In this document: piece after piece, positions 1 through 41,812 of the stretch
Layout: each line of letters opens with the position of its first letter
How positions within the stretch are numbered: the first letter of the stretch is position 1
Assembly (NCBI GenBank): GCA_028688055.1
Contig: JAQTYZ010000002.1
Span: 68,256 to 132,255, forward strand
Length of the DNA: 64,000 bases
Direction of reading: 5' to 3'
From: Patescibacteria group bacterium
GTDB taxonomy: Bacteria > Patescibacteriota > Patescibacteriia > Buchananbacterales > UBA6539
Position numbers and translations under genes: made by a program
Notes under the pieces: generated by a model
What the model was told of the DNA's origin: nothing
Seen by the model: the letters and a program-made list of their open reading frames with translations, nothing else
Database searches by the model: none

Positions 1-317
1 CGATGATGATACCAATAATACTGCCACGAATAATCGCCTTGGCCTTGGTAACTGACTCTTCGTTACCGCGTGCCATCATCCACAGGTAGCCAGCATAAAT
101 AATGTAAGCCATAAAAACCACACCCAGGATGGTGAGTAGACCTTTGATGACTTGGCCAATGGTGGTGGCTAAATTCGGGGTCGCGGTGTCATAAGATTGG
201 CCAGCAACATTGGTTAATTTACTGGTAATATCTAAGGCTAAAGCACTGTTCAGTGCTAAGCCTAGGACGCTGAGAACGATGGTGATAAAAATTAAAGTCT
301 TTAAAGTTTTGGTCATA
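1..317 (-). CDS. TrbC/VirB2-like pilin-family small secreted membrane protein (paralog 1). Its C-terminal end runs off the window edge
   Basis: Reverse-strand ATG at 317-315 gives MTKTLKTLIFITIVLSVLG..., a signal peptide. The conserved core GYLWMMARGNEESVTKAKAII...IIGIII is shared with seven downstream paralogs. No stop codon before the window start. Confidence 0.55.
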
Positions 318-320
318 AAA

Positions 321-734
321 TTATTTGGCGGTCGTGGCGCTTTGTAAGGCCTGAGCGACAAAGTAGCTAATGGCATAGGCCGACAAGACAATGATTAGAC
401 CGATGGTCGCCGCTCTCATCGTGTCTTTAGCCTTCTGAACTTCATCTTCTCTTCCTGAGGCCATCATCCATTTGTAGCCACCGTAAATGATTAAGACTAA
501 AAATAATATTCCAAAAACACTTAAGAAGGTATTAAGTACTTTACCAACAATAAGCTGCGACGCTGTCTCAACGTCCGTTCCGGCACTCGGTAAATCAATG
601 TCGGTAATACCTTGTTGCATTCGGTCGATAATGGTCTCCGCTAAAACTGTTGGGGCCTTAATTAAACCGATTGCTAGCAATAAGCCAGCCGTTGTCAGCC
701 CGGACGCGATTCTTTTTGATATTTTATTAGGCAT
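321..734 (-). CDS. TrbC/VirB2-like pilin-family protein (paralog 2)
   Basis: ORF track. Signal peptide, then motif YGGYKWMMASGREDEVQKAKDTM and a C-terminal transmembrane helix. The gap to each neighbouring paralog is 4-5 bp. Confidence 0.55.
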   Translation of the reverse strand: MPNKISKRIASGLTTAGLLLAIGLIKAPTVLAETIIDRMQQGITDIDLPSAGTDVETASQLIVGKVLNTFLSVFGILFLVLIIYGGYKWMMASGREDEVQKAKDTMRAATIGLIIVLSAYAISYFVAQALQSATTAK

Positions 735-738
735 ATTT

Positions 739-1146
739 TTATTGTTTAATGGCGCCGCTAAATTGAGTTAAGACAAATTCGGTAATAATTCTGGCCATTA
801 GGATAATTATTAAGCCGATGACCACCTCGCGGGTCATTTTTTTAGCCTTTTCAATGTGTTCTTCGTTGCCGCGCGCCATCATCCAGGTGTAGCCGGCATA
901 AATCAGTAGGAGAAAAAAAATGACCCCTAGGAAAGTTAGGAGTGAGCCTAAAATTTTAAATAAGGAGCCGGTAAAGGCATTGGTGCCAACTGTAATATTA
1001 TTGCCGCCGCCGTAGGCTTCATTAATAGTTGTTTGTAAGCCCGATTTGGCTTTTTGTAAAATTGATGCTGAAGCGTTTGTCGCCGAGCCAATAAACATTA
1101 AGACTGCTCCAATGGTAATTTTTTTTGTTGTTAGTGATAATTTCAT
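739..1146 (-). CDS. TrbC/VirB2-like pilin-family protein (paralog 3)
   Basis: Motif YAGYTWMMARGNEEHIEKAKKMT plus two hydrophobic segments. Confidence 0.55.
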   Translation of the reverse strand: MKLSLTTKKITIGAVLMFIGSATNASASILQKAKSGLQTTINEAYGGGNNITVGTNAFTGSLFKILGSLLTFLGVIFFLLLIYAGYTWMMARGNEEHIEKAKKMTREVVIGLIIILMARIITEFVLTQFSGAIKQ

Positions 1147-1150
1147 AAAT

Positions 1151-1564
1151 TTATGGATTTCCCGGTAGCGTTTTACCTAGGTAATTCAAGACAAATTCTG
1201 TTATGATCCGACCGCTAATGACGATAGCTAAACCAATCAAGGAGTTAATTATCATTCGCTTGGCTTTTTCCACTTGTTCTTCTTTGCCTTGGGCGGTCAG
1301 CCAAAGCCAGCCAGCATAAATGATTAAAATCATAAAGTAAGCACCCATGATCGTTACCATCCCTGTAACATAGGCCGAGAAAGCGACGACGAATTCTTTT
1401 TTGGGAGCACCTTCCTGAGTAGTACTGTAACCGGCGGCATCACCGGTTTGTTTAAAGCCATTAATCACCTGACTTGAGGTGTCGGCCGAGCTTAAACCGG
1501 CCAGCCAAAAATTTATGATAATCAAGCTTAAGATTATGGCTGAACTTAATTTTTTATTTTTCAT
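1151..1564 (-). CDS. TrbC/VirB2-like pilin-family protein (paralog 4)
   Basis: Motif YAGWLWLTAQGKEEQVEKAKRMI and a signal peptide. Confidence 0.55.
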   Translation of the reverse strand: MKNKKLSSAIILSLIIINFWLAGLSSADTSSQVINGFKQTGDAAGYSTTQEGAPKKEFVVAFSAYVTGMVTIMGAYFMILIIYAGWLWLTAQGKEEQVEKAKRMIINSLIGLAIVISGRIITEFVLNYLGKTLPGNP

Positions 1565-1570
1565 AAATAT

Positions 1571-2002
1571 TTAGGCGCCGTTAGTTGAAAATTCTAAGGA
1601 GTTGAAAATAACAAAGACTAGGGCATAGGCAATAAAAATTACCATCAGCCCAAAAATACCGTTGAGGATAAAGGTTTTTGCTTTTTGAATTTGTTCTTCT
1701 TTACCGTTAGATTCCATCCAGAATACGCCGCCGATTAGAATAACAGTTAAAAATACGACCGCGACTGAGGCAAATAAGTAGTTAATAATACGCCCAATAA
1801 TGGTCGCTAAATTTTGGGTTGGTTTGTCGGCCGCTGGGCCTTTTGATACGCCGGCTTGTTGCGCGGTGTTATTGACCCCCTCAAGCACATCGGTGGCCGT
1901 GCTGGCCAAAATTACCGGCGCTAACATTAAATTGAAAACCACCGACGCTAAAATTAGTAGTAGATTTATTTTTGACATTTTCATATTAACCGCTGGTTCC
2001 AT
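1571..2002 (-). CDS. TrbC/VirB2-like pilin-family protein (paralog 5). The true start may be the internal ATG near 1984
   Basis: Motif IGGVFWMESNGKEEQIQKAKTFI. The annotated start overlaps the stop of the upstream paralog at 1986. Confidence 0.5.
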   Translation of the reverse strand: MEPAVNMKMSKINLLLILASVVFNLMLAPVILASTATDVLEGVNNTAQQAGVSKGPAADKPTQNLATIIGRIINYLFASVAVVFLTVILIGGVFWMESNGKEEQIQKAKTFILNGIFGLMVIFIAYALVFVIFNSLEFSTNGA

Positions 2003-2390
2003 ATTTTAAAGCTGCTAAGACGACATAGACCAGCGAATACGCCAGGAAGACCACAATTAGACCATTAATACCCTCGCCCACGAATTTTTTGGCTTTGCCA
2101 ACTTTTTCTTCATTACCGCCCGCGATCATCCATAAAAAACCGCCGGTGATGGTAAAGACCAGTGAAATAACTCCGATGATGCCGAAAAAATAGCTGACAA
2201 TTGATCCGATTTTAGCTGGCAGGTTTGATTCGATGTCAATGTGACCGGAATTAGCCGTGGTTTGCAGAGTGTTGTCCAGCGCTTTTAAGCCCGTTACCGT
2301 GGCTGCCATTACTGGTATTTGGAGGATAAAAAATATGGCCGTGATTGTCAGCAACAGCGCTAAGTAATTTTTTTTAAAATAAGTCGTCAT
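1986..2390 (-). CDS. TrbC/VirB2-like pilin-family protein (paralog 6)
   Basis: Motif TGGFLWMIAGGNEEKVGKAKKFV. Confidence 0.55.
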   Translation of the reverse strand: MTTYFKKNYLALLLTITAIFFILQIPVMAATVTGLKALDNTLQTTANSGHIDIESNLPAKIGSIVSYFFGIIGVISLVFTITGGFLWMIAGGNEEKVGKAKKFVGEGINGLIVVFLAYSLVYVVLAALKYGTSG

Positions 2391-2472
2391 TTGATTTTAC
2401 CAATGGGGGAGACCCCCGTTTAAACGGCGAAGGTCTCCCCCTGAAGGAATACTCCGAAATATAAGTGGTTTT

Positions 2473-2832
2473 TTAAGCTGCGCCGGTTGCTGTGATTAAC
2501 TGACTGATGACGAAGCTGGCGATGGCGAAGGAAACAAAGATAATTACCAAACCGATGATGCCGGCGGTAATAATCTTTTTAGCTTCACCAACTTTTTCTT
2601 CAGAACCACCAGAAGTCAACCATCGGAAACCTCCCCACAGAATAATAATGATGGCTAGGATACCCAAGAATCCGAGTAAAACGTTGACAACGTTCATAAT
2701 GCCTTCGCGCAAATCCTTTGTTCCTAGACCGGTGTAAGTTCCGTAGTTAATTCCAGTTTCTAAAGCCAACGCCGGCATAACTGTTAAGGCAAAGATGGTA
2801 ACTAAGGTTGATAAAACGATTAATTTTTTCAT
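2473..2832 (-). CDS. TrbC/VirB2-like pilin-family protein (paralog 7). Candidate major pilin
   Basis: Motif WGGFRWLTSGGSEEKVGEAKKII. Strong ribosome-binding site AAAGGGGGTGAGAAA before the ATG. About 80% identical to the distant copy at 10675-11034, which has the same leader. Confidence 0.6.
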   Translation of the reverse strand: MKKLIVLSTLVTIFALTVMPALALETGINYGTYTGLGTKDLREGIMNVVNVLLGFLGILAIIIILWGGFRWLTSGGSEEKVGEAKKIITAGIIGLVIIFVSFAIASFVISQLITATGAA

Positions 2833-3004
2833 TTTCTCACCCCCTTTCGTTTTTAGCCGCTGACTATTTTTTTAATTTTGGCGGCCCTCATTTTTTAAAT
2901 GACTATCTATATTATACGAGAAAACGGTGAGTGATGTAAAGTGGAGAATTAATCAGTTGTTAATCTTAGAGTTGGTTGGCGACTGGGCTGTCGTCAGGCC
3001 CCCA

Positions 3005-3526
3005 TTAGGGGTTGCTCCCGGTGTTACTTGGGATTTGTCCAAATGGTGTACTACGGAATATGGTAGCTCGGGTGCCGATCGTTCCACCGGTTAAAGCTAA
3101 AATAATAAAGTTTACAACTAGCCAAGATGTTAAGACAATTGTTAACCCAATGGCCGCGGCGGTTATTGCGGCTTTGCCCTGCTGAATTTTTTCCTGACTG
3201 CCGGCTGAAATAATCCACAACACCCCGCCATAAAGAATCATTACCAGCGCCGCTGTTCCGGTCACCGCGACAATTAAGGTGGCAATGTTAATGATTACTT
3301 GCAGCAATTGATCAAGGCCGCAGTCGTTGACATCTTTTCCTTGCTCGCCAGTGCATTTGGTTGGGACAAGTTGTCCATCGGGGATTCCAATGCTAGTTAA
3401 AAAACTGGTCAGTCCGTCGGGCTTTGGTGGTGGTGGCGGCATTAAAGCCATCGCGGGTGCTGCTGTCATTAGCGCTGAAAAAAATATTGTTAAGGCCACC
3501 GTGGTGACGACAAAAATTTTTCTCAT
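3005..3526 (-). CDS. TrbC/VirB2-like pilin-family protein (paralog 8), with a Pro-rich N-terminal extension and a C-terminal tail
   Basis: Motif YGGVLWIISAGSQEKIQQGKAAI. A PPPPPKP stretch follows the signal peptide. The start overlaps the stop of the upstream solute-binding-protein gene. Confidence 0.5.
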   Translation of the reverse strand: MRKIFVVTTVALTIFFSALMTAAPAMALMPPPPPKPDGLTSFLTSIGIPDGQLVPTKCTGEQGKDVNDCGLDQLLQVIINIATLIVAVTGTAALVMILYGGVLWIISAGSQEKIQQGKAAITAAAIGLTIVLTSWLVVNFIILALTGGTIGTRATIFRSTPFGQIPSNTGSNP

Positions 3527-4902
3527 AAGGTTTGTTGAATTTTAAGACTTGCTAAATTAACGGCCTGTTGTACCTCAGTCCCGTCGTTAACACTTTTAAG
3601 CATATCTTTGAAGGCATTTTCCATGGCGTTAGCGTTATTGCCCTGATACCAGCTTTTGGCTGTTAGTAATTGGTCGGCAAAAACTTTTAGGTTATCATTA
3701 CTGCTTTGGTCAGCGACTAGCGTTCGCAAGGCGGTTGGCTTAGCGGTTTTAGCTAAATATTTTTTTGCTTCCTCAGGCTTTGACATAAATTGAATAAAAT
3801 CCCAGGCCTCATTAACGTGCTTACTTTTTTTGGACACACTTTGCACCCAGTAATTGGCGAAGTTCACCGGCGGTCGGCCATTGATTTGCGGCACGCTGGT
3901 TATGCCATAATTAAGTTTTCCCTGTCGTTTGCTTTCGAGGTAGGGGATATGATAATTGTAGCCAAACATCATGGCAACTTGACCGGCGGCGAAAGCGTCC
4001 ACGGAATTTGGAAAATCCTTGCTCCAGGTATAAACTTCTTTGGCGGAGTTGGCAAAATCAGTGTAAAATCTGACTGCTTCCGGACCCGGGACGTAATTTC
4101 GGTCGGTTACCCCTGAAGGGATTGAGCCAAACGTCACTTGTTTGCCTACTGACATCTGCGCTCCGTTTTGCATCATTAATAGTGAGACAATATCGCTGGC
4201 TCGGTCAACATTGTCAGCCGTTCCCATGGCGATGCCAGCCTGAACTAGTTTTCCACCTTTATCTTGGAAGGTTAATTTTTTAACATCAGCTTGCAGGGTG
4301 ACCCAATCATTGGGTGGTAGTGGGATGGCGGAATTATTAAGTAAATCGCGATTATAAAATAGAGCCAAGCTGTCGACACTTAATGGCAAGCCATAAATTT
4401 TGCCATCGCGCACCGCGTCATAATAAACGGCGTCGACATAAGCATTTTTTAGTTGAGCCGGGGTAATGCTGGTGGTATCTCTGACTTCGAAGATTGTTTC
4501 TTGTTTAATACCCAAACTCATTCTGGTCACCTGATAGGCCATGGTGGTTTTGGCTGGCAACGGTTCAATTTTACTTAAATATTTTGTCACCCAGTCGTTG
4601 TGAATTGAAAAAATATCAGGGCCTCGGTCCTCGGCTAACGAATTAAGCAATTGGGTTTCAAATTCTTCGGGACGAAGTTTTTTATAAGTGATGGTAACAT
4701 TTGGATGGACCGCTTTATAATCATTAATAATTTCTTGGAAACTATCCGGGTCGTCATAAACGCCCCACCAAGTTAGTTCAATCGGTTCTAATAATTGTTG
4801 TTGTTGTGGTGTGACAAATTTGCACTGAAAACCGCTGCTAGCTACAACAGCCGCCAATAAAACTAAGATCGGCAACTTGATAAATTTATTTTTATTTTTC
4901 AT
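3523..4902 (-). CDS. Extracellular solute-binding protein (ABC transporter, family 1, sugar-type). No permease or ATPase gene is adjacent
   Basis: Signal/lipobox-like N-terminus (LLAAVVASSGFQC). MalE-like composition and length. Start overlaps the galU stop. Confidence 0.55.
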   Translation of the reverse strand: MKNKNKFIKLPILVLLAAVVASSGFQCKFVTPQQQQLLEPIELTWWGVYDDPDSFQEIINDYKAVHPNVTITYKKLRPEEFETQLLNSLAEDRGPDIFSIHNDWVTKYLSKIEPLPAKTTMAYQVTRMSLGIKQETIFEVRDTTSITPAQLKNAYVDAVYYDAVRDGKIYGLPLSVDSLALFYNRDLLNNSAIPLPPNDWVTLQADVKKLTFQDKGGKLVQAGIAMGTADNVDRASDIVSLLMMQNGAQMSVGKQVTFGSIPSGVTDRNYVPGPEAVRFYTDFANSAKEVYTWSKDFPNSVDAFAAGQVAMMFGYNYHIPYLESKRQGKLNYGITSVPQINGRPPVNFANYWVQSVSKKSKHVNEAWDFIQFMSKPEEAKKYLAKTAKPTALRTLVADQSSNDNLKVFADQLLTAKSWYQGNNANAMENAFKDMLKSVNDGTEVQQAVNLASLKIQQTL

Positions 4903-5762
4903 AGTTTACCTTTTAAAAATTTTTTGAATTCCGTTGCAATTGTTTTATCTTTTAAACCGAATTCCACATTGGCCTTGAGCCAGCCAAGCTTGGATCCGGG
5001 GTCGTGCAGTTCGCCGTCAATCAACTTGGCATAAATTGGACGTTTTTTTAGCAACAGCGCAATGGCATCAACTAACCATAGCTCATTGTCGCGACCGATT
5101 TTCGTTTTTTCTAACGCCTCAAAGATATCCGGCGTAAAAATATAGCCGCCGAAACTGGCCACCCGGCTTTTAACTTTTGGTCCGGGCTTTTCCACGATTG
5201 AATTAACTTGGAAAACATCATTTTCAATTTTAATACCCTCAATGATCCCGTATTTTGAGGTTCCGGCCGTATCGGTCATTTTCGCCGTAATTACCGGATC
5301 GCCATATTTTTCGTAAACTTCAATCAACTGTCGAATGTGTGGTTTTCTAGGGCAAGTCCAAATGTCGTCGCCCCAAACAACAGCAAATGGCTCGTCGCCG
5401 ATAATTTGCTTGGCATTTAATACCGGCGTGCCATTGCCATAAGGGCCTTTTTGTCGGATATAAATAAAGTTTGCCATTTCGGCAACTTCTTTAACCTGCC
5501 TTTGGGCCTCTTTTTTCCCGGCCTTAAGCAGAAATTGTTCCAGGGTTTCGTTGCGATCAAAATGATCTTCAATTGCTCTTTTCGTTGAGCCGGTAACTAA
5601 GATAATGTCAGTAATTCCAGCTTTAACGGCGTCTTCGACAATGTACTGAATAATCGGTTTATCAACGATTGGCAACATTTCTTTTGGTTGGGCCTTGGTT
5701 GCCGGTAGCAATCTTGTGCCGAGACCGGCGACGGGGATAACAACTTTTCTAATTTTTTTCAT
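4899..5762 (-). CDS. galU: UTP--glucose-1-phosphate uridylyltransferase
   Basis: N-terminus KVVIPVAGLGTRLLPATKAQPKEMLPIVDKPIIQYIVEDAVKAGITDIILVTG is a canonical GalU signature. Confidence 0.8.
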   Translation of the reverse strand: MKKIRKVVIPVAGLGTRLLPATKAQPKEMLPIVDKPIIQYIVEDAVKAGITDIILVTGSTKRAIEDHFDRNETLEQFLLKAGKKEAQRQVKEVAEMANFIYIRQKGPYGNGTPVLNAKQIIGDEPFAVVWGDDIWTCPRKPHIRQLIEVYEKYGDPVITAKMTDTAGTSKYGIIEGIKIENDVFQVNSIVEKPGPKVKSRVASFGGYIFTPDIFEALEKTKIGRDNELWLVDAIALLLKKRPIYAKLIDGELHDPGSKLGWLKANVEFGLKDKTIATEFKKFLKGKL

Positions 5763-5856
5763 AGCGATTTGATTGATTATTGATAAAATTATAACAGAAA
5801 AGCGTTGAATTGTAAAAAATAAAATAATGTGTTAATTTTATAGCTGTTTAAAACGC

Positions 5857-8267: not shown

Positions 8268-8332
8268 AATTAAAAAAAGTTGAGTTTTTGTCATCCCGAG
8301 CTTGTCGAGGGATCGCTCAACTTTTTTTAATT
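8268..8332. terminator. Bidirectional intrinsic terminator. The hairpin loop carries a TGTCATCCCGAGC...GGGATC repeat module
   Basis: AAAAAAGTTGAG ... CTCAACTTTTTTT inverted repeat between two convergent genes. Confidence 0.6.
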
Positions 8333-10548
8333 TAATCAACTCTAATAAGTTGTTTGAAAAATTCGCCGCCGTTTAGATAAATGACTTTATTATTTTTGTC
8401 TAGTAACCTCAATCTAAACTTAAGAATGTAACTTCCTTTTTTGATGCGCCTTGGGTTTAGGGTAAATTTGAATTCGGCATTATCACCTGGCTTAATTGTC
8501 GCTTTATTTAGTGGCACCCCGACCACGTTTGGTCGAACCCAGTCGTTGGCGTCATAAAAAATACTAGTTGAGCCATCGTCATTATAAAGTTCTAACGCTG
8601 TTCGGCGTGATAGCCAACTCGTTGTTTGGCTATTATTTTTTACTTTCATCGTTATTTGAACTGGCTTCCAAGTATTTTTTACAGCCAATGGCAGGTTGTG
8701 ACTTATTATTTCAGCGGAGTCACCGGTTTTAACGATAATAAATTTTCCCATTGTCGCCAGTTTAGTGGTGCTACCGTTATGGTTGGAATATAAATTGAAG
8801 TTTTGTGTTAATAAACCGTTTTGATCAATGGGGGCGGTGAGCTGGAAAGTGAAGCTGCCAGTTTGACCGGCTTGGACTGAGGCTTGATCTAAAGTAATTT
8901 TATTCATTACGCCAAATGATGTTTGGTCATCGTTTTTATTACTAACTTGTACCCAAACCGTAGTTGGCGTCCAAGTTGTTTGACCAGTATTCTTAAATTT
9001 TACTGAGACCATGGCGGCTTGGCCAGTAATTAGCTGAATACTGTCGGGGGTAATTGATTCAAATTCGCCCGCGACGCTTCCGGCTGGTGTGATAGCTGGA
9101 TCTTTAATGGTGCTATCGACGTAGTCGATGATTTCACCGGCGGGATGAAGATTGAGCAAATCAGTCGAGATAGTCAGGGCTGAGGCTTGTTTGTCCGGCC
9201 CAAAGGTTCGATTAAAAATGCCCGGGTCATCGATTCTCATGCGCTGGCCGTCAGAAATTAAATAATATTTTCCGCCGCTCAAAACAAAAGTACCATCGTC
9301 GAACAAGATCGGCGTTGAGGTTGGGTATTGGTTAAGTTGATCTGAGGTGGTCGGTTCCGGTGTGGCAGCAGCAAATTTATTTTTCCAAACGACGGGATCG
9401 ACCAAGTGTTTTAGGCCATCCTGAACTTGCCAAATGGTGCCAGTTTCATCTTTAAATAATTGACCTTGCGGATAAATTGAACTAGCCGAAATCCAGGGCC
9501 CTAAAGTGTAACCGGATAAATCAGCCTCCGGAACGAATGGCAAGTCGACATTGGTGATGGCGATTGAATAGTTTTTTAGTAAAGCTAAGGCGTTATTATC
9601 AATCACCGGACGTTTTGTCAGGCCAACTAATAAATACATTTGACCTGTTGCATCAGATTTGACTAAAGTATTGTCAGCATATTTAATTGTTGGTCCATCC
9701 GGATAGGCATTCAATTGTTGAGTCGAGGCCACGATTGCCTCATTGGCGGTATGATTTTTTAAATAGAATGTTTCCGAAGTAAATTTTCTTTTTTGGTTAT
9801 CGGCAATCAGCCAGTAGTCGTTGCCATTTCTAACAACTTGACCATCCAGAAAATTTTGGCCGGTAAAGTAGCGATTCCAAATCCGCCAAAAAAGTTTATT
9901 GGCACCATAATTGACATTAATGCCAAGCTCCGGCGCCTTACCGACATGGGGCGTATAGATATAGAGGTTGGCTGTCGCCTTGTTAGCCGGTGTCACCGGA
10001 TAACCATCATAAGTCATCGTGGTCTGCCCGACCTTAAAAGAAAATTGTCCGGCGCGATCCCAGTAAATTTGTTGGGTTTCCGCTGTTGCTTGAACTTGAT
10101 TATAAAAACCTTGATATTTGTCTTTGCAGCCGCCATTAAAACAACTGTAGCCAGTGGCCCAGTCGAGCGCTTTTTCGGTAGCCGAACTTTTTTGGACTAA
10201 CCCTTGTTCTTTTTCGAGCGTGGTTAATAAAAATTCGGGATTGATATTCGTGGCTTGGCCAACATTCCAAATTATCTCTGATGCTTTTTGGGCTACGCCG
10301 TTGATGATTTGGCTATAACGCGCTAAGACGCTATTTTCTCTTTCCAGGAAAACTTGAATGGCGGTTTTTGAGAGCGCATCTTTATTGGTTAAGTCAGCAT
10401 CGGTAATAATATTATTTGGATCAAAGGTTCTGGCCTGGGCCATGGTTGGTAAAATAACAAAAAGAGCTAAGGCACTAATTCTTAGCTTGAATGGTAACTT
10501 AGAAATTTTTTTTGTTTTATTTTTTTTGTAACTTCGGCGAAAAAACAT
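8332..10548 (-). CDS. Large secreted hypothetical protein (738 aa)
   Basis: Signal peptide ISALALFVILPTMAQA. No recognisable catalytic motif. Beta-rich repetitive C-terminal half. Confidence 0.5.
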   Translation of the reverse strand: MFFRRSYKKNKTKKISKLPFKLRISALALFVILPTMAQARTFDPNNIITDADLTNKDALSKTAIQVFLERENSVLARYSQIINGVAQKASEIIWNVGQATNINPEFLLTTLEKEQGLVQKSSATEKALDWATGYSCFNGGCKDKYQGFYNQVQATAETQQIYWDRAGQFSFKVGQTTMTYDGYPVTPANKATANLYIYTPHVGKAPELGINVNYGANKLFWRIWNRYFTGQNFLDGQVVRNGNDYWLIADNQKRKFTSETFYLKNHTANEAIVASTQQLNAYPDGPTIKYADNTLVKSDATGQMYLLVGLTKRPVIDNNALALLKNYSIAITNVDLPFVPEADLSGYTLGPWISASSIYPQGQLFKDETGTIWQVQDGLKHLVDPVVWKNKFAAATPEPTTSDQLNQYPTSTPILFDDGTFVLSGGKYYLISDGQRMRIDDPGIFNRTFGPDKQASALTISTDLLNLHPAGEIIDYVDSTIKDPAITPAGSVAGEFESITPDSIQLITGQAAMVSVKFKNTGQTTWTPTTVWVQVSNKNDDQTSFGVMNKITLDQASVQAGQTGSFTFQLTAPIDQNGLLTQNFNLYSNHNGSTTKLATMGKFIIVKTGDSAEIISHNLPLAVKNTWKPVQITMKVKNNSQTTSWLSRRTALELYNDDGSTSIFYDANDWVRPNVVGVPLNKATIKPGDNAEFKFTLNPRRIKKGSYILKFRLRLLDKNNKVIYLNGGEFFKQLIRVD

Positions 10549-10674
10549 AGCGTTGCTAGTGTTGGTATTTTATCATTTTTTTAGTGGTTTGTAAATATTT
10601 GGCAGTTGTCTCGCTTTGTGGTATATTATAAGCAGTTTTATTAAATAAAAATCATCAAGAAAGGGGGTGAGAAT

Positions 10675-11034
10675 ATGAAAAAAGGATTAATTATTGCTTC
10701 AATGGTTTTTCTATTCGCGCTATCCGTTATGCCGGCCTTAGCTTTGGATGTTGGTTTAAATTACGGCACTTACACTGGTTTAGGAACAAAGGACTTGCGT
10801 GAAGGTATAATGGCAATTGTTAACGTCTTGATGGGCTTTTTGGGTATTATCGCCATCATTATCATTTTGTACGGCGGTTTCACTTGGATGACTGCCGGTG
10901 GTAATGAAGAAAAGGTCAGTCAGGCCAAAAAGATTATCACTGCCGGCATCGTCGGTTTGGTAATCATCTTCATTTCATTTGCTATCGCCAGCTTCGTCAT
11001 TACGCAGTTAATTTCCGCCACTGGCGCTGTTTAA
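10675..11034 (+). CDS. TrbC/VirB2-like pilin-family protein (distant ninth paralog, near-identical to 2473-2832)
   Basis: YGGFTWMTAGGNEEKVSQAKKII. Same AAGGGGGTGAGAAT leader. An extended -10 (TGGTATATT) lies near 10619-10627. Confidence 0.6.
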   Translation: MKKGLIIASMVFLFALSVMPALALDVGLNYGTYTGLGTKDLREGIMAIVNVLMGFLGIIAIIIILYGGFTWMTAGGNEEKVSQAKKIITAGIVGLVIIFISFAIASFVITQLISATGAV

Positions 11035-11076
11035 ACAATAAAATTACTTAAGGCTTTTCCGTTTGGTAAATTATTT

Positions 11077-11748
11077 ATGCCATCAATCAACGACTGGGGG
11101 TCGGTTGCGACCTCTTCCCTAAATGAAATTTGGTTTCGCTTTGTCGATTTGGTCCCTAACCTGATTGGCGCCGCGTTAGTTTTGATTGTTGGTATTTTTT
11201 TGGCGCAGGCCGTTGGTCGCGTCATTGCCAAACTGATTCATAAAATTTATGTCGATCGCGCTGCCGAAACTACTGGTCTAACCACTTTTTTGCAGCGCCT
11301 TGGATTTAAACTTGAAATCAGTAGAGCCTTAGGTCTTCTGGTTACCTGGTTTTTGTATATCATTATTTTAGTCGCCACCGCTGAAATTTTGGGTCTTGAT
11401 CAGATTTCTCAATTTTTGGGTTCGGTGGTCCTCTATATCCCAAACGTCCTGATTGCCGTGGTTATTTTGCTCGTTGGCATTATCGTTTCTAATTTTGTTC
11501 ACACGTTAGTTAAAGAAATGTCGATTGCCGCTAATTTAGATTTTGCCGATTCGTTAGCTAATGTTGCCAAATGGGCGTTGTTAATTTTTACCTTTATGGC
11601 CGCCCTAATTCAGCTTCGGGTGGCCACGGAGTTAATTCAGATTTTATTTACCGGTTTGGTGTTAATGGTTTCCTTGGCCGGTGGTATTGCTTTTGGGCTT
11701 GGTGGTAAAGATCAGGCTAAAGAATTTTTAGATAAATTGATTAAGTAG
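11077..11748 (+). CDS. Membrane protein with TM_helix repeats (mechanosensitive-channel-related N-terminal repeat family)
   Basis: Three repeats of the type LVPNLIGAALVLIVGIFLAQAVGRVIAKLI. Confidence 0.5.
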   Translation: MPSINDWGSVATSSLNEIWFRFVDLVPNLIGAALVLIVGIFLAQAVGRVIAKLIHKIYVDRAAETTGLTTFLQRLGFKLEISRALGLLVTWFLYIIILVATAEILGLDQISQFLGSVVLYIPNVLIAVVILLVGIIVSNFVHTLVKEMSIAANLDFADSLANVAKWALLIFTFMAALIQLRVATELIQILFTGLVLMVSLAGGIAFGLGGKDQAKEFLDKLIK

Positions 11749-11765: not shown

Positions 11766-11793
11766 ATAACCCCCGACGTGCGGGGGTTTTATC
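11766..11793. terminator. Intrinsic terminator
   Basis: CCCCCGACGTGCGGGGG followed by TTTTAT. Confidence 0.65.
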
Positions 11794-11801
11794 ATTGCCA
11801 A

Positions 11802-12470
11802 TTATTTTATTTCAGCTAAGCCGTAAATGGCAAAGGGTTTTTGTCGTTCAAGTGCCCAGATTTGATTGCCATAATCGAAATGCCACCATTCATATTGGTC
11901 AAATCGAAAACCGCCGGTCACCATCGCTTCGCGCAGCAATTTTCGGTTAGCTCTGATTTTTTGGTCAAGTTCAGGATGATTTTCATAATATAAGGCCGCG
12001 TCTTCATCGCTAAAATGATCAAACTCACCACCCATATTAAGTTCCTGGCCATCTTGATCGACCAAGGTCAGATCGACCGCGCCGCCGGTTAAATGGAGTG
12101 GTATTTTTTTAGGGTTATAAGGGTCGGAGACAAAAGTTAAAGTTCGGTCTTTAAGTTGTTCGTCGTTCCAAGTTGGGTTAAGTTTTTTCAGTTTGTCGTG
12201 AAGTGTATCATAGAGAATTTTTTGCGTTTTGTAGTCGCGCCAACCGTCCCAAATTTTAATTTTATGGTCCCCGAGACTTTTTTGAACTTCTAAAAGTTTT
12301 TTGGCTGCTGACTCACGTAAGTACATTGCTGTTCGATCAGCGATATTATTTTTGAAGTACATCGGTTCGAGTACAAAACCATAAGCTTTGAGATTAACCA
12401 GCGGTTCGCCGCACTCTTTAATAATAATATGTTCGTAATCTCTAATCATAGGATAGCTATAATCAGCCAA
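11802..12470 (-). CDS. D-alanyl-D-alanine dipeptidase (VanX/DdpX, peptidase M15D)
   Basis: Length and motifs (...SDPYNP...HLTGGAVDLTLV...EWWHFDYG) typical of the VanX family. Confidence 0.65.
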   Translation of the reverse strand: MADYSYPMIRDYEHIIIKECGEPLVNLKAYGFVLEPMYFKNNIADRTAMYLRESAAKKLLEVQKSLGDHKIKIWDGWRDYKTQKILYDTLHDKLKKLNPTWNDEQLKDRTLTFVSDPYNPKKIPLHLTGGAVDLTLVDQDGQELNMGGEFDHFSDEDAALYYENHPELDQKIRANRKLLREAMVTGGFRFDQYEWWHFDYGNQIWALERQKPFAIYGLAEIK

Positions 12471-13723
12471 AATAAAATTGCTAAGTCATTTTTAAAATAG
12501 GGGACATCAATTAAGCCATGAATTATAATTGTGATCATCGCCGCCATGATTCCTAACGTCAACCACTTGTCTGTTTTTATTTTTACTATCCCTGACTTGA
12601 AAAACTGGACCATTAGTAGCGCCATACCGGTTAGTCCAATCAAGCCGATTTCGACCCAGAAATTTAGAATAATATTGTGCGGGTACAGTAAGGGTTCTAA
12701 TTTTAGCGGGTCACGCCATTGATTTTGGATTTTAGCAAAGCCCAAGATGCCCGCGCCAGCAACAAAGTTAGTCGGGCTGGCGGTTAAATAATTATTGGCC
12801 ATTTGCCAAAGTTCTAAACGGTTTTGGCTTGAGCTGCTTTTGACGACTCCGGACAGCAGCGACGGTTGCAACGAAATTGCTAACAGGCCAATGATAAATA
12901 TTATTAGCACTGCCGCAACAGTTTTTTTCTGGCTGACGCCAAAAAATAACATGAAAATAAGAGCCGCTGTTAATCCCAACCACGTCCCTTCGGACCAGGT
13001 AAAAAATATTGCCACTAAGCTGATTAATATTAGGGAAGCTTTAAGGACGGTTGGCCAGATTTTTTTTATTTCGCTTAGCAACCAACCAAAGTAAATGGCA
13101 ACAATGGGTGCCAAATAAAGTCCCACGGCATTGGGCGATGAGAATATTGAAGTAACCCGTCGGTGCGCCATCGCGGTCCAGGCTGGCTCATAAATACCAA
13201 AGCCAGTAAATTTTTGGTCAATGGCCAATAAGGCGATTGGTAAAGCCGAAATACCCAGTGACCATAAAATAATTTTTTGGTTTTTCTTTCCTGGCCAGAT
13301 ATTATATAGCAGCACAAAAAACATAATTGGCTCGATGAAATAAGCTTTCCATAAACCGGCCGCTTCGATTTTATTAGGTGCAATAATCATCCCAATCGTC
13401 GCGCCGACTAAAATTAAAATAATCGCCGCTCGATAAGGATACTGCCCGCCTCGCTTTATTTTATGTTTTATTAAATTGGCAATCGTGAAGCTTACAAAAA
13501 CCACCCAGATTAGAAGTTCTAAAAAAGTGATTGGCAAAAATGCCAAACGTGAGCGAAATAAATAAGTTGGCAAGCAGATAATAATTAAGCTTACCGCCCA
13601 AGCTGGTTTTTTGCTGGCCAGATAGCCGGCCAGCACGACGATAATAAGCAAGCCGATGTTAATCGGCCACCAGAACTGATTTAAGACGTGCGCAATTTGC
13701 CAATTGAAATCAAACCAAAACAT
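12446..13723 (-). CDS. Polytopic membrane protein, O-antigen ligase/polymerase-like
   Basis: About 10-12 predicted transmembrane segments. Glycoconjugate context (flippase and HD protein adjacent). Confidence 0.4.
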   Translation of the reverse strand: MFWFDFNWQIAHVLNQFWWPINIGLLIIVVLAGYLASKKPAWAVSLIIICLPTYLFRSRLAFLPITFLELLIWVVFVSFTIANLIKHKIKRGGQYPYRAAIILILVGATIGMIIAPNKIEAAGLWKAYFIEPIMFFVLLYNIWPGKKNQKIILWSLGISALPIALLAIDQKFTGFGIYEPAWTAMAHRRVTSIFSSPNAVGLYLAPIVAIYFGWLLSEIKKIWPTVLKASLILISLVAIFFTWSEGTWLGLTAALIFMLFFGVSQKKTVAAVLIIFIIGLLAISLQPSLLSGVVKSSSSQNRLELWQMANNYLTASPTNFVAGAGILGFAKIQNQWRDPLKLEPLLYPHNIILNFWVEIGLIGLTGMALLMVQFFKSGIVKIKTDKWLTLGIMAAMITIIIHGLIDVPYFKNDLAILFWLIIAIL

Positions 13724-13724
13724 A

Positions 13725-14723
13725 TTAATTCAAAATCTTTATATAAAATCCTTTTTTAACTTTGGCCGCCCAGGCGGCAACTCTTTGGTAGTAGACCGGG
13801 TCGACTTTTGACAGCCGGATTAATTTGCCATCCTGCAAAAAGTAGGGGTCAACGACCCGAGTTTTTGAAGTGCCCCAGAAGTCAGCCGCTGTTTTTTTGG
13901 ATACGATTTTAATTTTTAAATTTTTGATTTGTTGCAATTTTTTGGTAATGATTGGATTTTTAGTGTGGCCTAACTTTTTTAGAATGTATTCATCGGTAGT
14001 ATAAAGTTCTTTTTTGGTAATAATTTTTTTTGTCAGCGCTTCACGGAGGACCTGGGCTGAGATGGTATAAATGGCAATTTGGAGCGGTTTGCACCAGTTA
14101 TTTCGGTTATGCTTTTCATAAAGTCGAGCGAATGCTTGGGCGCCGCTCCGGCTTTTAAATACAAACTGCTGCTGATAAACGGTCAGGTCTTTTAAGATTT
14201 TTTTGGGATCAGCGGTATCAAATACTTTAGCCCAAGGATCGGATAACGTGTAATCAATGCGATCAGCACACAGATCCGGTAAATCGCGTTCGGCTAATGG
14301 AAAGGTGCTCGTGCTTAGAATTTTAGTATGGTTAAAGCCATACTTTTTTAAAATTGCGTTGACCCCCTGAAGTTGAAAGGCTTTTCCTAGTCGATCGTCT
14401 TGATAGCTGTGTTTACTGGTGTCCTTATTAAATAAAAAATCGGCAACGTGAGAAAATACCGTGTGTGATATGTCGTGGAGCAACCCATGGAGCTGTTCTT
14501 CAATGCTAGCATTAAACTTTCGCAACAATAACATAACGCCGATTGAGTGGTCATAACGACTAAAGTGATGACTTTTTTTCCAGCTTTGGTGCAACTGCCA
14601 AGTGCCGTGCTGTTCGATTTTTTTTAGTCGTTGGAGCGCTGGCGATTTAATTAAATCAATCAGTACTGGCTCCTTAATTGTAACGTGCCCATAAAGTGGG
14701 CTATTAATTTTTATGGCTTTCAT
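13725..14723 (-). CDS. HD-domain phosphohydrolase
   Basis: HSIGVMLL...LLHDISHTVFSH motif. Confidence 0.6.
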   Translation of the reverse strand: MKAIKINSPLYGHVTIKEPVLIDLIKSPALQRLKKIEQHGTWQLHQSWKKSHHFSRYDHSIGVMLLLRKFNASIEEQLHGLLHDISHTVFSHVADFLFNKDTSKHSYQDDRLGKAFQLQGVNAILKKYGFNHTKILSTSTFPLAERDLPDLCADRIDYTLSDPWAKVFDTADPKKILKDLTVYQQQFVFKSRSGAQAFARLYEKHNRNNWCKPLQIAIYTISAQVLREALTKKIITKKELYTTDEYILKKLGHTKNPIITKKLQQIKNLKIKIVSKKTAADFWGTSKTRVVDPYFLQDGKLIRLSKVDPVYYQRVAAWAAKVKKGFYIKILN

Positions 14724-16138
14724 TTTATTGAAATAATTTCGGCCACTAATTTTTTATTGATGGCCCCAAGTAAAACCAACATTAAGCCATACACTGCCGC
14801 GCCGATAACAATGGAAGCCGCTAGGTTGATTGTTGGAAAATAGGCTAGAGTGCCGCCCATTACCGCTGCCGCGACAATAATTTTGGCCACCAAATTAATT
14901 TTTGGCAAAAAACTTATTTTTTTATATAAAACATAACTGGCGGTCACTAAAATAAAGCCTTCGGTAAAAACCGTCATCCAAGCCGCCCCCCAATATGAGT
15001 AGCGGGGGATAAAGATCAAGTAGCCGATAATTGAAACAACGGCATTAATAAAATAAAATTTAATCATTTGTTTCTGGGCGTTGAGGGCCACGACGGCATA
15101 GCCAAACAGGCTGGCAATAAAAATAGTTGCTGTCGCAATCAAGAGGATTTTAATAATATCACCCGAGATGATAAAATCGGCGCCAGCGATTAAGGCCATT
15201 AATGGCCGACCCAAAAAATAGCCGCCGACGACCATCGGTATTGCTAGCATCATTAAAAAGTCAAACGCTGATTGAATGGTTGTTTTTAGTTTATTAAAAT
15301 CTTTAATGGCCACCGCGGTTGCCAGAATTGGCAGGATTAAACCCAAGAAGATATAGACGGTATTAATGAGGACGTCTAAAACCCGATAGGGAGCGCCGTA
15401 CAAACCAACTTCCGCTTGGGTTCGCGTCAGTGACATGATAATAATATCACCTTTGAAATAAATTAGGTTTAGGGCAATGGTTAAGGCAATTGGCCAAGTT
15501 TGGCTGAGGATTTTTTTCCAGACGGTTTGGTTTATTTCAAATTTTAATTTAATTTTTTTATCAGCAAAATATAATAAAATGGCCAACGTCAGTAAACTGT
15601 CTAAAGTAATGGCGGCAATCACGGCGATTAGGCCTAAGTTGAAATAAATCGCTAACAAAATACCAGCTAAATAAATAATTTTGGCCACCACCTCGGCGAT
15701 GGCCAGCTTGTGCATGATTAAATGTTTTTGGAAATAGCTGGTTAAAGTTGAAACCAGCGAACTAAAAACAAAACCAATGGCGGCAACAATTGTGCCGGCT
15801 TTAATAATCGTTGGGTAAGGAAAAAAAATAATTACCAGCGGCGCAATGCCTAAAAAAATCAACGACGCCACTAGTCGCAGCGATAGGGCATTGCTAAGGA
15901 TTTCACTTTCGTTTTCGTTTGGGTCAGAAATTAATTGGGTGGTGGTCATCTGTAATCCGAGGTCAACTAAAATTCCGAAGACGGCCAGGAAGCCGTAAAT
16001 CGTCGTGTAATAACCAAAACCTTCTTGACCTAAATATCTCGTCATCGCTCCAAAACCGATTAAGGCCATCGCCACGGTAATGGTTTTGCCAAGTAGTTGG
16101 ATGATGGTGTTGTGCGCAATTTTTTTAATTTCCGTCAT
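14720..16138 (-). CDS. Polysaccharide/oligosaccharide flippase (MOP/Wzx-type)
   Basis: 472 aa with about 12-14 transmembrane segments. Wzx-like N-terminus MTEIKKIAHNTIIQLLGKTITVAMALIGFG. Confidence 0.6.
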   Translation of the reverse strand: MTEIKKIAHNTIIQLLGKTITVAMALIGFGAMTRYLGQEGFGYYTTIYGFLAVFGILVDLGLQMTTTQLISDPNENESEILSNALSLRLVASLIFLGIAPLVIIFFPYPTIIKAGTIVAAIGFVFSSLVSTLTSYFQKHLIMHKLAIAEVVAKIIYLAGILLAIYFNLGLIAVIAAITLDSLLTLAILLYFADKKIKLKFEINQTVWKKILSQTWPIALTIALNLIYFKGDIIIMSLTRTQAEVGLYGAPYRVLDVLINTVYIFLGLILPILATAVAIKDFNKLKTTIQSAFDFLMMLAIPMVVGGYFLGRPLMALIAGADFIISGDIIKILLIATATIFIASLFGYAVVALNAQKQMIKFYFINAVVSIIGYLIFIPRYSYWGAAWMTVFTEGFILVTASYVLYKKISFLPKINLVAKIIVAAAVMGGTLAYFPTINLAASIVIGAAVYGLMLVLLGAINKKLVAEIISIK

Positions 16139-31700: not shown

Positions 31701-31757
31701 ATTTAGTTTGACAAAAAATTTGTAAGGCTTAAGATGAGCCTAGGCAAAAGGAGGGTA

Positions 31758-34878: not shown

Positions 34879-34888
34879 AATTTTATTG

Positions 34889-38511: not shown

Positions 38512-41586
<3,075 letters not shown>

Positions 41587-41697
41587 AACTGGGGAAAATA
41601 GCTAATGGCATTTGGCAAATCGCTAATAGCCAATTAGTAATACTCTGAATTAAAATCATTAGAACCTGGATGCCTGGCATTTGGTCGGGCATCTCGT

Positions 41698-41802: not shown

Positions 41803-41812
41803 TTTATCATCA

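Follow-up and report, generated by a model that had tools for sequence, protein, structure and literature searches.

A chromosomal VirB2-like pilin array in a Buchananbacteria-related Patescibacterium

The locus is a chromosomal VirB2-like pilin array of a Patescibacterium related to Buchananbacteria (GTDB class ABY1). Within the window, by which we mean the whole 64-kb stretch of DNA analysed, positions 1-3526 carry eight co-oriented pilin-like genes and a ninth copy lies at a distance (p1 to p9; strands in Table 1), as a preliminary description of this DNA had stated and as the ORFs and translations bear out; the nine products range from 119 to 173 aa. The same description took eight as the size of the array, a count that is an artefact because the window edge cuts the array. 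On the source contig (locus L001) the array continues past the window start with the remainder of p1 and three further copies, one of these beyond an interposed 156-aa gene, so that the cluster holds 11 copies (eight inside the window) and the set amounts to 12 with p9, the 12 genes spanning approximately 17 kb. The described packing, with gaps of 3-6 bp or overlaps, holds for five of the seven junctions (1-6 nt) but not for p8-p7 (172 bp) or p7-p6 (82 bp). For p5, the start is likely to be the ATG at 1984, 1 nt past the p6 stop, rather than the ORF end at 2002. Identity between copies inside the array is 26-43%.

Table 1. Pilin-like genes, neighbouring genes and sequence signals in the window
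Feature	Position	Strand	Evidence and remarks
p1, pilin-like, cut by window start	1..316	-	translation; PF18895 E 2.8e-7; complete gene 132 aa, L001 4187-4585
p2, minor pilin-like paralog, 137 aa	321..734	-	PF18895 E 2e-10; NF045849 40.1 bits; ortholog r6 54% identical
p3, minor pilin-like paralog, 135 aa	739..1146	-	PF18895 E 5e-7; ortholog r5 50% identical
p4, minor pilin-like paralog, 137 aa	1151..1564	-	PF18895 26.0 bits (gathering threshold 26.6); ortholog r4 47% identical
p5, minor pilin-like paralog	1571..1984 (ORF to 2002)	-	PF18895 22.2 bits, below threshold; aligns with family motif
p6, minor pilin-like paralog, 134 aa	1986..2390	-	PF18895 E 1.4e-8
Hairpin between p7 and p6, 14 bp, G+C-rich	2405..2441	-	RNA fold -32 kcal/mol, z -3.7; without T-run
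p7, candidate major pilin, 119 aa (mature about 96 aa)	2473..2832	-	PF18895 E 9e-12; PF04956 28.3 bits (threshold 27.9)
Shine-Dalgarno site GAAAGGGGGTGAG of p7	2836..2848	-	duplex energy -18.1 kcal/mol, rank 1 of 60 window ORFs
Promoter-like site TTTACA-18-TATAAT, 5' of p7	2911..2940	-	11 of 12 positions, joint best in 12 kb; consensus match only
p8, first gene of the array, 173 aa	3005..3526	-	PF18895 E 7e-10
SBP, orphan sugar-type extracellular solute-binding protein, 459 aa	3523..4902	-	PF01547 E 6e-29
galU, UTP-glucose-1-phosphate uridylyltransferase	4899..5762	-	TIGR01099 E 5e-93; opens galU-SBP-p8 unit
Promoter-like site TTTACA-17-TATAAT, extended -10 TG, 5' of galU	5788..5816	-	11 of 12 positions; consensus match only
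738-aa exported protein, divergent from p9	8332..10548	-	weak EccB-like (25.7 bits) and Ig-like matches; candidate system member
Promoter-like site 5' of p9	10599..10627	+	10 of 12 positions, with TG
Shine-Dalgarno site GAAAGGGGGTGAG of p9	10659..10671	+	duplex energy -18.0 kcal/mol, rank 2 of 60; identical to p7 leader
p9, second major-type pilin copy, 119 aa	10675..11034	+	PF18895 E 6e-9; NF045849 44.3 bits
223-aa membrane protein, MscS-type N-terminal helix domain	11077..11748	+	PF05552 E 2e-18; same place in L005 and L007
Terminator-like hairpin past the 223-aa protein gene	11768..11788		

All nine window copies match PF18895 (T4SS_pilin), with E values from 9e-12 to 1.5e-4 and seven of them above the gathering threshold; on these scores the joint match cannot be ascribed to chance. 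All nine also match the NCBIfam model NF045849 ('pilin-like conjugal transfer protein'), three over its cutoff, and p7 in addition marginally exceeds the threshold of PF04956 (TrbC). The pilin-like identity within the TrbC/VirB2 superfamily, proposed from the letters of the sequence, thus stands. Alignment of the p7 family with Agrobacterium-type VirB2 by hhalign (E 4e-4, probability 35%, helices in register, 25% identity over 59 columns) suggests a weak kinship with the classical protein, and sequence-profile searches found no solved pilin.

The core motif was confirmed by alignment as GG(F/Y)xW(M/L)xAxGxEExVxKAK...IGL, with G, W, G, K and G as invariant residues. A precursor consists of a signal peptide, a short variable extracellular N-segment and a hairpin of two long helices with a Gly-rich turn followed by EE..K.AK, and some copies add a short variable C-tail. 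This signal-peptide and hairpin architecture, also part of the preliminary description, was recovered in the hydrophobicity profiles and in AlphaFold2 models: a Kyte-Doolittle scan gave an N-terminal hydrophobic segment and two more in each complete copy but p3, where the segment of the signal peptide does not reach the threshold of 1.6, while the models (pLDDT 78, and 84 for p7) contain a signal-peptide helix and a hairpin of two 39-residue helices. All 12 copies have a plausible signal-peptidase-I site with Ala at -1. By topology the Gly-rich turn would lie on the cytoplasmic side, with both termini outside. Fold searches returned generic alpha-hairpins only (ATP synthase subunit c, CpxA), with no conjugative pilin in the top 50. 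In p8, the longest product, the ectodomain is rich in Pro and contains two Cys, and the C-terminal tail has 24 aa.

Two copies carry unusual expression signals. The genes p7 and p9, first put at about 80% identity, have a protein identity of 76% and a DNA identity of 79% (dN/dS 0.16/1.27, about 0.13), and the strong Shine-Dalgarno leader GAAAGGGGGTGAG that they were said to share is indeed present in both; the median duplex energy of the 60 window ORFs is -0.65, and the other paralogs lie between -4.3 and +1 kcal/mol. Orthologs of p7 in related species are 75-88% identical and the p9 ortholog r11, in the same context, is 75% identical, compared with 37-55% for orthologs of the minor paralogs. 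The proposal that p7 and p9 are the major subunit is therefore supported by the two highest Shine-Dalgarno ranks, the best promoter-like site and this difference in conservation, a combination consistent with a single major subunit alongside about ten minor ones; what we say of promoters, terminators and abundance comes from sequence signals alone. The hairpin in the p7-p6 spacer may act as a terminator or attenuator, although it was not among the calls of a terminator scan.

Directly upstream of the array lie galU and the SBP gene, which overlap by 4 bp, and the SBP stop and p8 start overlap as ATGA; from this junction we read the SBP gene as translationally coupled to p8. The nearest solved relatives of the SBP are sugar/maltose-binding proteins, and no ABC permease adjoins its gene in this genome's window. 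Among 62 species-level related loci, the SBP gene occupies the upstream position in 48 and galU in 44, while downstream of the array a DUF2079 gene is found in 20 and a gene for a 554-aa polytopic protein in 16. The first pilin after the SBP gene has at least two Cys in 47 of the 48 related loci. Always first, with Cys in its ectodomain and co-translated with the orphan SBP and GalU, p8 is the best candidate for a tip or adaptor protein. Near p9, the gene for the 738-aa exported protein keeps its place in L005 and L007, has homologs in four loci and remains the neighbour of p9 in closer relatives; the gene for the 223-aa MscS-type protein, directly 3' of p9, is probably co-transcribed with it.

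We consider it fairly probable that the PF18895 array supplies a T4SS pilus-like filament or conduit. Sec would insert the hairpins into the membrane, where they would form a pool, and a VirB4/VirB6-type monoderm T4SS, presumably encoded elsewhere in the genome, would polymerize them into a pilus-like filament or a wall-spanning conduit for host-cell contact. The bulk subunit would be p7 and its old duplicate p9; the ten divergent, positionally conserved paralogs would be low-abundance minor subunits with priming, tip or adaptor roles, with p8 as the preferred candidate for the tip/adaptor subunit. The literature reports no pilus or filament of the PF18895 family in any Patescibacterium, and because a pilus has never been observed this mechanism is one that we infer. 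A scan of the window agreed with the described absence of VirB4- and VirB6-like genes: no T4SS ATPase was detected anywhere in the 64 kb, in a further 8 kb past the window or closer than 10 kb to any of the related arrays, and no VirB6-like gene among the window ORFs, not every small one of which was covered. That the assembly machinery lies elsewhere is borne out as far as this absence goes; relatives with the same array, from Buchananbacteria and Magasanikbacteria (L013, L018, L022 and L033), are scored VirB4-positive elsewhere in their genomes. At the distant locus L099 a T4SS-type ATPase has for neighbours an SBP gene, one pilin of p8 type and three other pilins. This locus, the VirB4-positive relatives and the PF18895 genes known from other Patescibacteria (below) speak for a link to a T4SS; against the proposed mechanism stand the missing filament, the lack of a T4SS ATPase near any related array, the presence of pilin genes at only one of 50 loci with such an ATPase, the generic fold matches, the profile searches without a solved pilin and the weak link to classical VirB2.

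The preliminary description saw in the array an expansion in a reduced genome and a source of paralog-driven variation. The array is not peculiar to this genome: 9-12 array copies are the norm across the 62 related species, and this class of feature has already been published. Paralog-driven variation would make the paralogs interchangeable alternative major subunits for antigenic or host-range variation, comparable with trwL of Bartonella Trw, an idea that has been raised in the literature for Patescibacteria. It can draw on the exposed N and C segments being the fastest-evolving parts of the minor paralogs (6-45% ortholog identity, against 54-65% in the core), on the differing number of p7-type copies (three in tandem in L011, two in L013) and on the lineage-specific duplication behind p5 and p6, which are both co-orthologous to r3 (43% and 48% identical). 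We nevertheless regard variation as unlikely. The order p8-p7-p6/5-p4-p3-p2-p1-pA-pB-pC is collinear, with one-to-one positional orthologs, in about 12 species, which argues against variation of a shuffling type, and the DNA offers no repeats to drive recombination or gene conversion beyond a single 59-nt motif-coding stretch at 63-75% identity. With dS at approximately 1.3 between p7 and p9, the copies are by this measure ancient, and the strong translation signals found only on these two indicate that the copies are not equivalent. Old copies, DNA without repeats beyond that stretch and ordered positional orthologs are the pattern of different subunits kept as a constant set rather than of a variation cassette.

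Little credence can likewise be given to a T4SS-independent envelope module, in which membrane-resident hairpins (e.g. a hetero-oligomeric ring or scaffold) would act with the co-transcribed orphan SBP, GalU and the DUF2079/GT-C-like membrane proteins encoded downstream in sugar capture or uptake or in envelope glycan assembly. The recurrent neighbours on both sides, the ATGA overlaps joining galU to SBP and SBP to p8 in this genome, the SBP gene without a permease beside it, the lack of a T4SS ATPase near any array and a best natural fold match to the ring hairpin of ATP synthase subunit c (probability 0.96, TM 0.71) all speak for such a module. However, that match is insignificant (E 0.75), helices of 39 residues far exceed what a bilayer needs, and the conserved proximity to housekeeping envelope genes may reflect history and not function; homology favours conjugation-type pilin-like proteins, PF18895 genes of Saccharibacteria lie inside a T4SS cluster, both being essential, and the SBP-pilin module of L099 adjoins a T4SS-type ATPase. 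The nearest curated family being the Mycoplasma ICE pilin-like conjugal transfer protein, the array might be the remnant of an integrated conjugative element with amplified pilin genes, but this is very improbable: the same envelope genes, among them galU, the SBP gene and DUF2079, accompany the array on the chromosome throughout a whole class, the region contains no gene for a relaxase, a coupling protein or an integrase and is not anomalous in composition, and tblastn of p7 against 72,556 plasmids gave zero matches. Small secreted hydrophobic proteins encoded in tandem also loosely recall minor-pilin operons, yet an identity as type IV (PilA-type) pilins or pseudopilins is refuted by signal type and hairpin, as the class III prepilin signal (G|F/MxxxE) is absent, the proteins instead have signal-peptidase-I sites of the AxA type and a two-helix hairpin in their C-terminal part, and type IV pilin families gave no matches.

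Similar genes are known from several systems. The 'VirB2 arrays' of Patescibacteria (Quinonero-Coronel et al. 2025, Microb Genom, PMC12102498) comprise 2-11 pilin genes each, in tandem or broken by a single non-pilin gene, with a mean copy identity of 25% and a maximum of 54%, and are most abundant in Microgenomatia and Saccharimonadia. Our array shares their Pfam models (PF18895, PF04956), tandem layout and low copy identity, but belongs to ABY1, where 9-12 copies are the norm, and its 11 clustered copies (12 with p9) equal or exceed the highest number reported there, 11; two relatives, L011 and L062, have 12 copies in one cluster. It further differs in its distance from any T4SS ATPase, its conserved galU-SBP and DUF2079 neighbours and its strict ortholog order, none of which is in that paper. 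In Southlakia epibionticum ML1 (Wang et al. 2023, Cell, PMC10633639), SEML1_0014-0019 are six PF18895 genes, essential by Tn-seq, inside a T4SS cluster next to PrgI-, VirB4- and VirB6-like genes; they too are tandem, divergent and of similar size (312-558 bp), and structure searches with them also returned only generic hairpins, whereas the 11-12 genes described here are unlinked from PrgI/VirB4/VirB6-like genes and known from sequence alone.

Classical VirB2/TrbC/TraA pilins (Agrobacterium Ti, RP4, F) have the same signal peptide, hydrophobic two-helix hairpin and short polar loop, but here the loop is 7 residues longer with a conserved acidic-basic EE..K.AK motif, the mature protein has 96 aa rather than about 70-78, the envelope is monoderm and no virB1, virB3 or virB4 adjoins. 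The tandem trwL (VirB2)/trwJ (VirB5) genes of Bartonella Trw resemble the array in being variable VirB2-type genes of a host-dependent organism whose coupling protein is absent or unidentified; those copies are lineage-specific amplifications within a T4SS operon, thought to be variant surface subunits, while ours are ancient, collinear across species, unequal in expression signals and outside a T4SS operon. Mycoplasma ICE proteins (Mbov_0395/MMCAP2_0565, NF045849) are the best curated NCBIfam match, which spans the hairpin in full (8-79 of the 80 profile positions), and likewise come from a wall-less or monoderm setting, but are encoded by a single gene in a mobile element, in contrast to 12 chromosomal genes without mobile-element genes. 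With the minor-pilin or pseudopilin operons of T4P/T2SS there is an analogy only, that of a conserved, highly expressed major subunit with fixed, ordered, divergent minor ones; there is no homology, and the two differ in the type of signal, in fold and in the machine that assembles them.

The array is thus a real, ordinary example of the pilin arrays already described in ultrasmall Patescibacteria, which have been proposed to form a filament for contact with a host. What is new here is the norm of 9-12 copies, the strict order of orthologs, the lack of a T4SS ATPase within 10 kb of related arrays, the galU-SBP neighbours and the conservation and translation signals of p7 and p9.

Seven complete minus-strand ORFs for pilin-like proteins lie within the first 3.5 kb of the window, an eighth gene (p1) runs off its start and a ninth copy (p9) stands apart on the plus strand (see table). 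The preliminary description had counted an array of eight genes and one distant copy; these genes are real, but the array continues past the window edge. Logan contig L001, which bears p7, runs further and holds a complete p1, two more tandem copies (pA and pB), an interposed gene and one last copy (pC), bringing the total to 11 in the cluster and 12 with p9; the genes beyond the last pilin copy encode a DUF2079 protein and a pair of ~550-aa polytopic membrane proteins. The interposed gene (L001 5674-6144) lies on the opposite strand between pB and pC and encodes a lipoprotein-like protein of 156 aa, for which no family match was found; its homologs (36% identity) occur near the array in the related loci L012, L014 and L018. 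The tight packing first reported applies to five junctions (1-6 nt) but not to p8-p7 (172 bp) or p7-p6 (82 bp). Similarly, the identity of p7 and p9, put at about 80%, was measured as 76% for protein and 79% for DNA. With this pair excepted, pairwise identity among the nine window paralogs is 26-43%, and in their alignment G, W, G, K and G are invariant within the motif GG(F/Y)xW(M/L)xAxGxEExVxKAK...IGL.

Table. Positions of the pilin-like copies and of the two genes upstream of p8, with the orthologs of each copy (r1-r11) in a relative represented by a 922-kb contig
Gene	Window position	Strand	Status	Ortholog	Identity
p1	starts 316, runs off window start	-	complete on L001, 132 aa	r7	55%
p2	321-734	-	complete ORF	r6	54%
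p3	739-1146	-	complete ORF	r5	50%
p4	1151-1564	-	complete ORF	r4	47%
p5	1571-2002	-	complete ORF	r3	43%
p6	1986-2390	-	complete ORF	r3	48%
p7	2473-2832	-	complete ORF	r2	86%
p8	3005-3526	-	complete ORF	r1	37%
p9	10675-11034	+	ninth copy	r11	75%
pA			on L001	r8	46%
pB			on L001	r9	43%
pC			on L001	r10	50%
SBP	3523-4902	-	solute-binding protein
galU	4899-5762	-

Membership of the array in the T4SS_pilin family PF18895 is firm. All nine copies matched this profile (E 9e-12 to 1.5e-4), seven of them above the gathering threshold of 26.6 bits (30.1-45.4 bits), with p4 (26.0 bits) and p5 (22.2 bits) falling just under it and aligning to the same profile region. The TrbC/VirB2 profile PF04956 (threshold 27.9 bits) was passed only by p7 (28.3 bits, E 2e-6, profile positions 10-97 of 98); p1 and p5 scored 11-12 bits, below threshold, and the remaining window copies gave no match to it. 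Three of the nine (p2, 40.1 bits; p7, 41.6; p9, 44.3) exceeded the curated cutoff of 40 bits of NF045849, the Mbov_0395 family of pilin-like conjugal transfer proteins from a Mycoplasma ICE, and the other six matched under it at 19-38 bits. The HMM searches support the proposal that these are pilin-like proteins of the TrbC/VirB2 superfamily. The homology to classical VirB2 is weak, though plausible: aligned by hhalign with seven Agrobacterium-type VirB2/TrbC proteins, which tblastn recovered from plasmid records, the p7 family gave E 4e-4 with a probability of only 35%, the helices being in register and the Patescibacterial loop seven residues longer, and the nine paralogs gave E 0.012 against the same set. 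A search of all PDB sequences with the paralog profile returned only chance transmembrane-helix matches (Na,K-ATPase, E > 0.5), and tblastn of p7 against a plasmid collection gave no match. In representative protein clusters at 50% identity the same nine-copy profile matched 75,216 clusters, 25,894 of them at E <= 1e-10. Its best matches are single polypeptides bearing 2-17 tandem pilin-hairpin modules; within the set P0241-P0390, P0244 (1775 aa) has 17 modules without stop codons, and fused 'poly-pilin' proteins thus exist.

The predicted topology has the conjugative-pilin architecture of a signal peptide followed by two hydrophobic helices with a short polar loop, as had been proposed. Kyte-Doolittle scanning detected an N-terminal hydrophobic segment and two more in each complete copy except p3, whose signal-peptide segment lies under the threshold. 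The N-termini are classical n-h-c signal peptides with AxA-type sites, and all 12 copies have Ala at -1, at the signal peptide end. AlphaFold (AF2) models of p7 predict a signal-peptide helix, a disordered N-segment of 13 residues and a hairpin of two 39-residue helices, placed at residues 38-72 and 78-116 in the full-length protein (pLDDT 78) and at 11-49 and 55-93 in the mature form (pLDDT 84). Comparison of the predicted p7 fold with the PDB by Foldseek was uninformative, returning only insignificant generic hairpins (ATP synthase subunit c, CpxA) and no conjugative pilin. Type IV pilus pilins and pseudopilins were considered and rejected on signal type, the sites being AxA-type instead of the class III prepilin leader G↓(F/M)xxxE; the G-F-x-x-x-E motif is absent from the N-termini, and the nine copies had no matches to type IV pilus families.

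p7 is identical to NCBI protein PHW95_01955 from a MAG named 'Patescibacteria group bacterium', and close homologs are in Candidatus Buchananbacteria and Falkowbacteria MAGs; homologs and their neighbours came from Buchananbacteria (GTDB class ABY1) and other Patescibacteria MAGs. A scan with p7 of one genome per species produced 62 loci, all from ABY1-type lineages of Patescibacteria, and at every locus whose contig was long enough a paralog-built HMM counted 9-12 pilin ORFs, 12 being the maximum. The relative with the 922-kb contig has the syntenic order galU, SBP, a 180-aa pilin, a 119-aa pilin, eight more pilins, DUF2079, two 554-aa membrane proteins and then glycosyltransferases, and the p9 region is likewise kept. 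All-against-all comparison with this relative gave one-to-one collinear orthology, except that p6 and p5 both correspond to r3; flanking proteins of the same genome pair, used for calibration, are 47-80% identical. The same gene order occurs in ~12 species. Conservation within orthogroups is 54-65% for the hairpin core and 6-45% for the N and C segments predicted to be exposed, with p7 standing out at 86% and 82%, respectively.

These comparisons bear on the suggestion, made in the preliminary description, of a surface-appendage or adhesion system with variation driven by the paralogs. The only DNA-level repeat in 1-3600 is a 59-nt stretch encoding the motif (63-75% identity), and dN/dS for p7 against p9 is 0.16/1.27. 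Because of the collinear orthology, this single motif-coding repeat and the high dS, the paralogs are old, individually kept and free of sequence exchange, which argues against a shuffling mechanism; we therefore consider a variation system improbable. Recent duplication or gene conversion was rejected for lack of DNA repeats and because dS is saturated (~1.3 in the closest pair). Nor does the pattern fit a variable pilin amplification of the Bartonella Trw type, for which a recent, lineage-specific tandem expansion into interchangeable variants would be expected. As separate observations, the number of p7-type copies varies between species (three in tandem at L011 3577-4800, two at L013 9492-10330) while the minor paralogs stay single-copy, and loci L026-L056, from more distant ABY1 lineages of Magasanik-, Komeili- and Kerfeldbacteria type, contain several array members with large Cys-rich ectodomains (8-46 Cys) on the PF18895 hairpin. 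One of these is 454 aa long and another, of 507 aa (L027 8375-9895), has its pilin domain at residues 162-213; in such proteins the hairpin may serve to anchor adhesin-like domains.

Expression signals predicted from the DNA fit one abundant major subunit (p7/p9) and ~10 low-abundance minor subunits, in line with the division into major and minor pilins first put forward. With a canonical anti-Shine-Dalgarno sequence assumed, p7 (-18.1 kcal/mol) and p9 (-18.0 kcal/mol) have the strongest two predicted duplexes of 60 window ORFs (median -0.65), and the remaining paralogs lie between -4.3 and +1 kcal/mol. galU and p7 are preceded by the joint-best promoter-like sites in 12 kb, and a site of this kind also precedes p9; a hairpin of -32 kcal/mol follows p7, and ATGA overlaps join galU to SBP and SBP to p8.

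The searches agree with the expectation that assembly machinery would lie outside the window. Pfam scans of its large or unassigned ORFs found no VirB4, VirB6 or VirD4, no genes of a T4SS cluster (virB3, virB4, virB6) were found in the window or on L001, and two Patescibacteria T4SS-type ATPases used as tblastn queries had no match at any array locus or in the window. The genomes of L013, L018, L022 and L033, which have the same array, are scored VirB4-positive in Table S1 of PMC12102498, and this supports a location of the machinery elsewhere. Among the metagenomic loci listed for the T4SS-type ATPase family (at least 8 kb each), pilin genes occur in one of 50 (L099). Given this rarity and the blank tblastn at array loci, the arrays are physically apart from the ATPase in this lineage. 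Solitary p7-like pilins at two related loci, L057 and L060, have a T4SS-type ATPase (TrwB_AAD_bind, T4SS-DNA_transf, DUF87) within 2.5-6 kb; this adjacency is weak evidence and may be chance, because the family is almost never next to pilins. An ICE remnant was rejected, since the synteny is chromosomal and kept across the class. The main rivals to a T4SS-dependent pilus are the variation system considered above and a membrane or envelope module that works independently of a T4SS, together with the binding protein and glycan enzymes; the latter is likewise improbable.

galU and the gene for an orphan sugar-type solute-binding protein (SBP, PF01547) are directly upstream of the array in 44-48 of the 62 species-level loci, and DUF2079 is downstream in 20. 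The nearest solved relatives of SBP are maltose and sugar binders, and no ABC permease or ATPase gene is adjacent to it (window 3523-5762; related loci L003-L068). In 47 of 48 loci, two or more Cys occur in the first pilin after SBP. Among the matches listed, SBP homologs were close relatives only, at least 52% identical and all within ABY1; L099, a distant locus, has an SBP homolog (25% identity, E 3e-33) with a Cys-bearing p8-type pilin directly after it and, further downstream among other genes, three more pilins beside the T4SS-type ATPase. Our literature search turned up no report that connects a binding protein to these arrays, and the module of SBP and Cys-bearing pilin appears to be undescribed.

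Envelope-glycan genes surround the pilins (window 12446-16138; L001 6822-12014) and comprise Wzy_C, an HD protein, a Polysacc_synt flippase, DUF2079 and the two ~550-aa GT-C-like polytopic proteins. Wzy_C is O-antigen-ligase-like, in a family that includes pilin O-oligosaccharyltransferases, and pilin glycosylation is a possibility. p9 belongs to a conserved trio (window 8332-11748; L005 7601-11577) with a divergent 738-aa exported protein, which has weak EccB-like and Ig-like matches, and, downstream, a membrane protein of 223 aa whose N-terminal helix domain is of the MscS type; in the 922-kb relative a third p7-like copy (141 aa) follows this region. Elsewhere in the window, three large predicted surface proteins are candidate adhesins (16396-19875, 1159 aa, PKD domain; 33028-34971, 647 aa, three lamin-tail domains and PKD; 54020-56173, 717 aa, no Pfam match). 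Reduced as the genome is, it has a CheW-like gene (31734-32294; PF01584, E 3e-32), with no further chemotaxis genes apparent in its vicinity. At 3072 nt against a model of 2925 positions, the 23S rRNA gene (38512-41804) seems to carry at least one insertion; a 5S gene follows it, and the window has no 16S gene upstream of it, 16S being typically unlinked in Patescibacteria.

Patescibacteria, which live attached to other microbes, account for a large part of the bacterial diversity not yet cultured. In Southlakia epibionticum, the only genetically tractable member, the T4SS-like system and its pilin series are essential for this way of life. Wang et al. (2023, PMC10633639) found that predicted pilins encoded in series within its T4SS cluster are essential, the supplement listing six PF18895 genes (SEML1_0014-0019), all essential, beside PrgI-, VirB4- and VirB6-like genes. 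Quinonero-Coronel et al. (2025, PMC12102498), applying PF04956 and PF18895 to 3,035 Patescibacteria genomes, reported 441 VirB2 arrays. These have 2-11 pilin genes, either in tandem or with one gene intervening, and their mean identity is 25%; a 2025 review states that a pilus has yet to be demonstrated in Patescibacteria. PMC12102498 defines a VirB2 array as two or more PF18895/PF04956 genes of a Patescibacteria genome that stand in tandem or have one non-pilin gene between them, and the eleven copies with their single interposed gene form such an array. In the best-supported model, these VirB2-superfamily hairpins would be exported by Sec and processed by signal peptidase into a membrane pool, from which a monoderm-type T4SS encoded elsewhere would polymerize them into a pilus-like filament or conduit. 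p7/p9 would be the major subunit and the ordered paralogs minor subunits, with p8 the candidate tip or adaptor. The analysis shows the family, topology, conservation pattern and synteny of these genes, from which polymerization, dependence on a T4SS, stoichiometry and any role of SBP are inferred.

A more specific proposal, which we regard as speculative and unlikely, is that the ABY1 array is a fixed multi-subunit apparatus of one abundant major and ~10 ordered minor subunits, functionally coupled to SBP and to UDP-glucose and GT-C-type glycan enzymes. The Cys-bearing p8-type pilin would present SBP or serve as its docking site, and the structure would be a pilus or conduit for capture or import of host-derived sugar, or a glycosylated filament, rather than a variation locus or simple T4SS accessory. 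The array is a member of a published class and adds no new kind of feature. It offers a clean, very conserved example that leads to testable predictions: one major and ~10 minor subunits, a candidate tip subunit, a conserved partner sugar-binding protein and a location physically apart from the ATPase genes. Should SBP and the pilins prove to be functionally linked, the role of the apparatus would more likely be nutrient capture than transfer of DNA or effectors.
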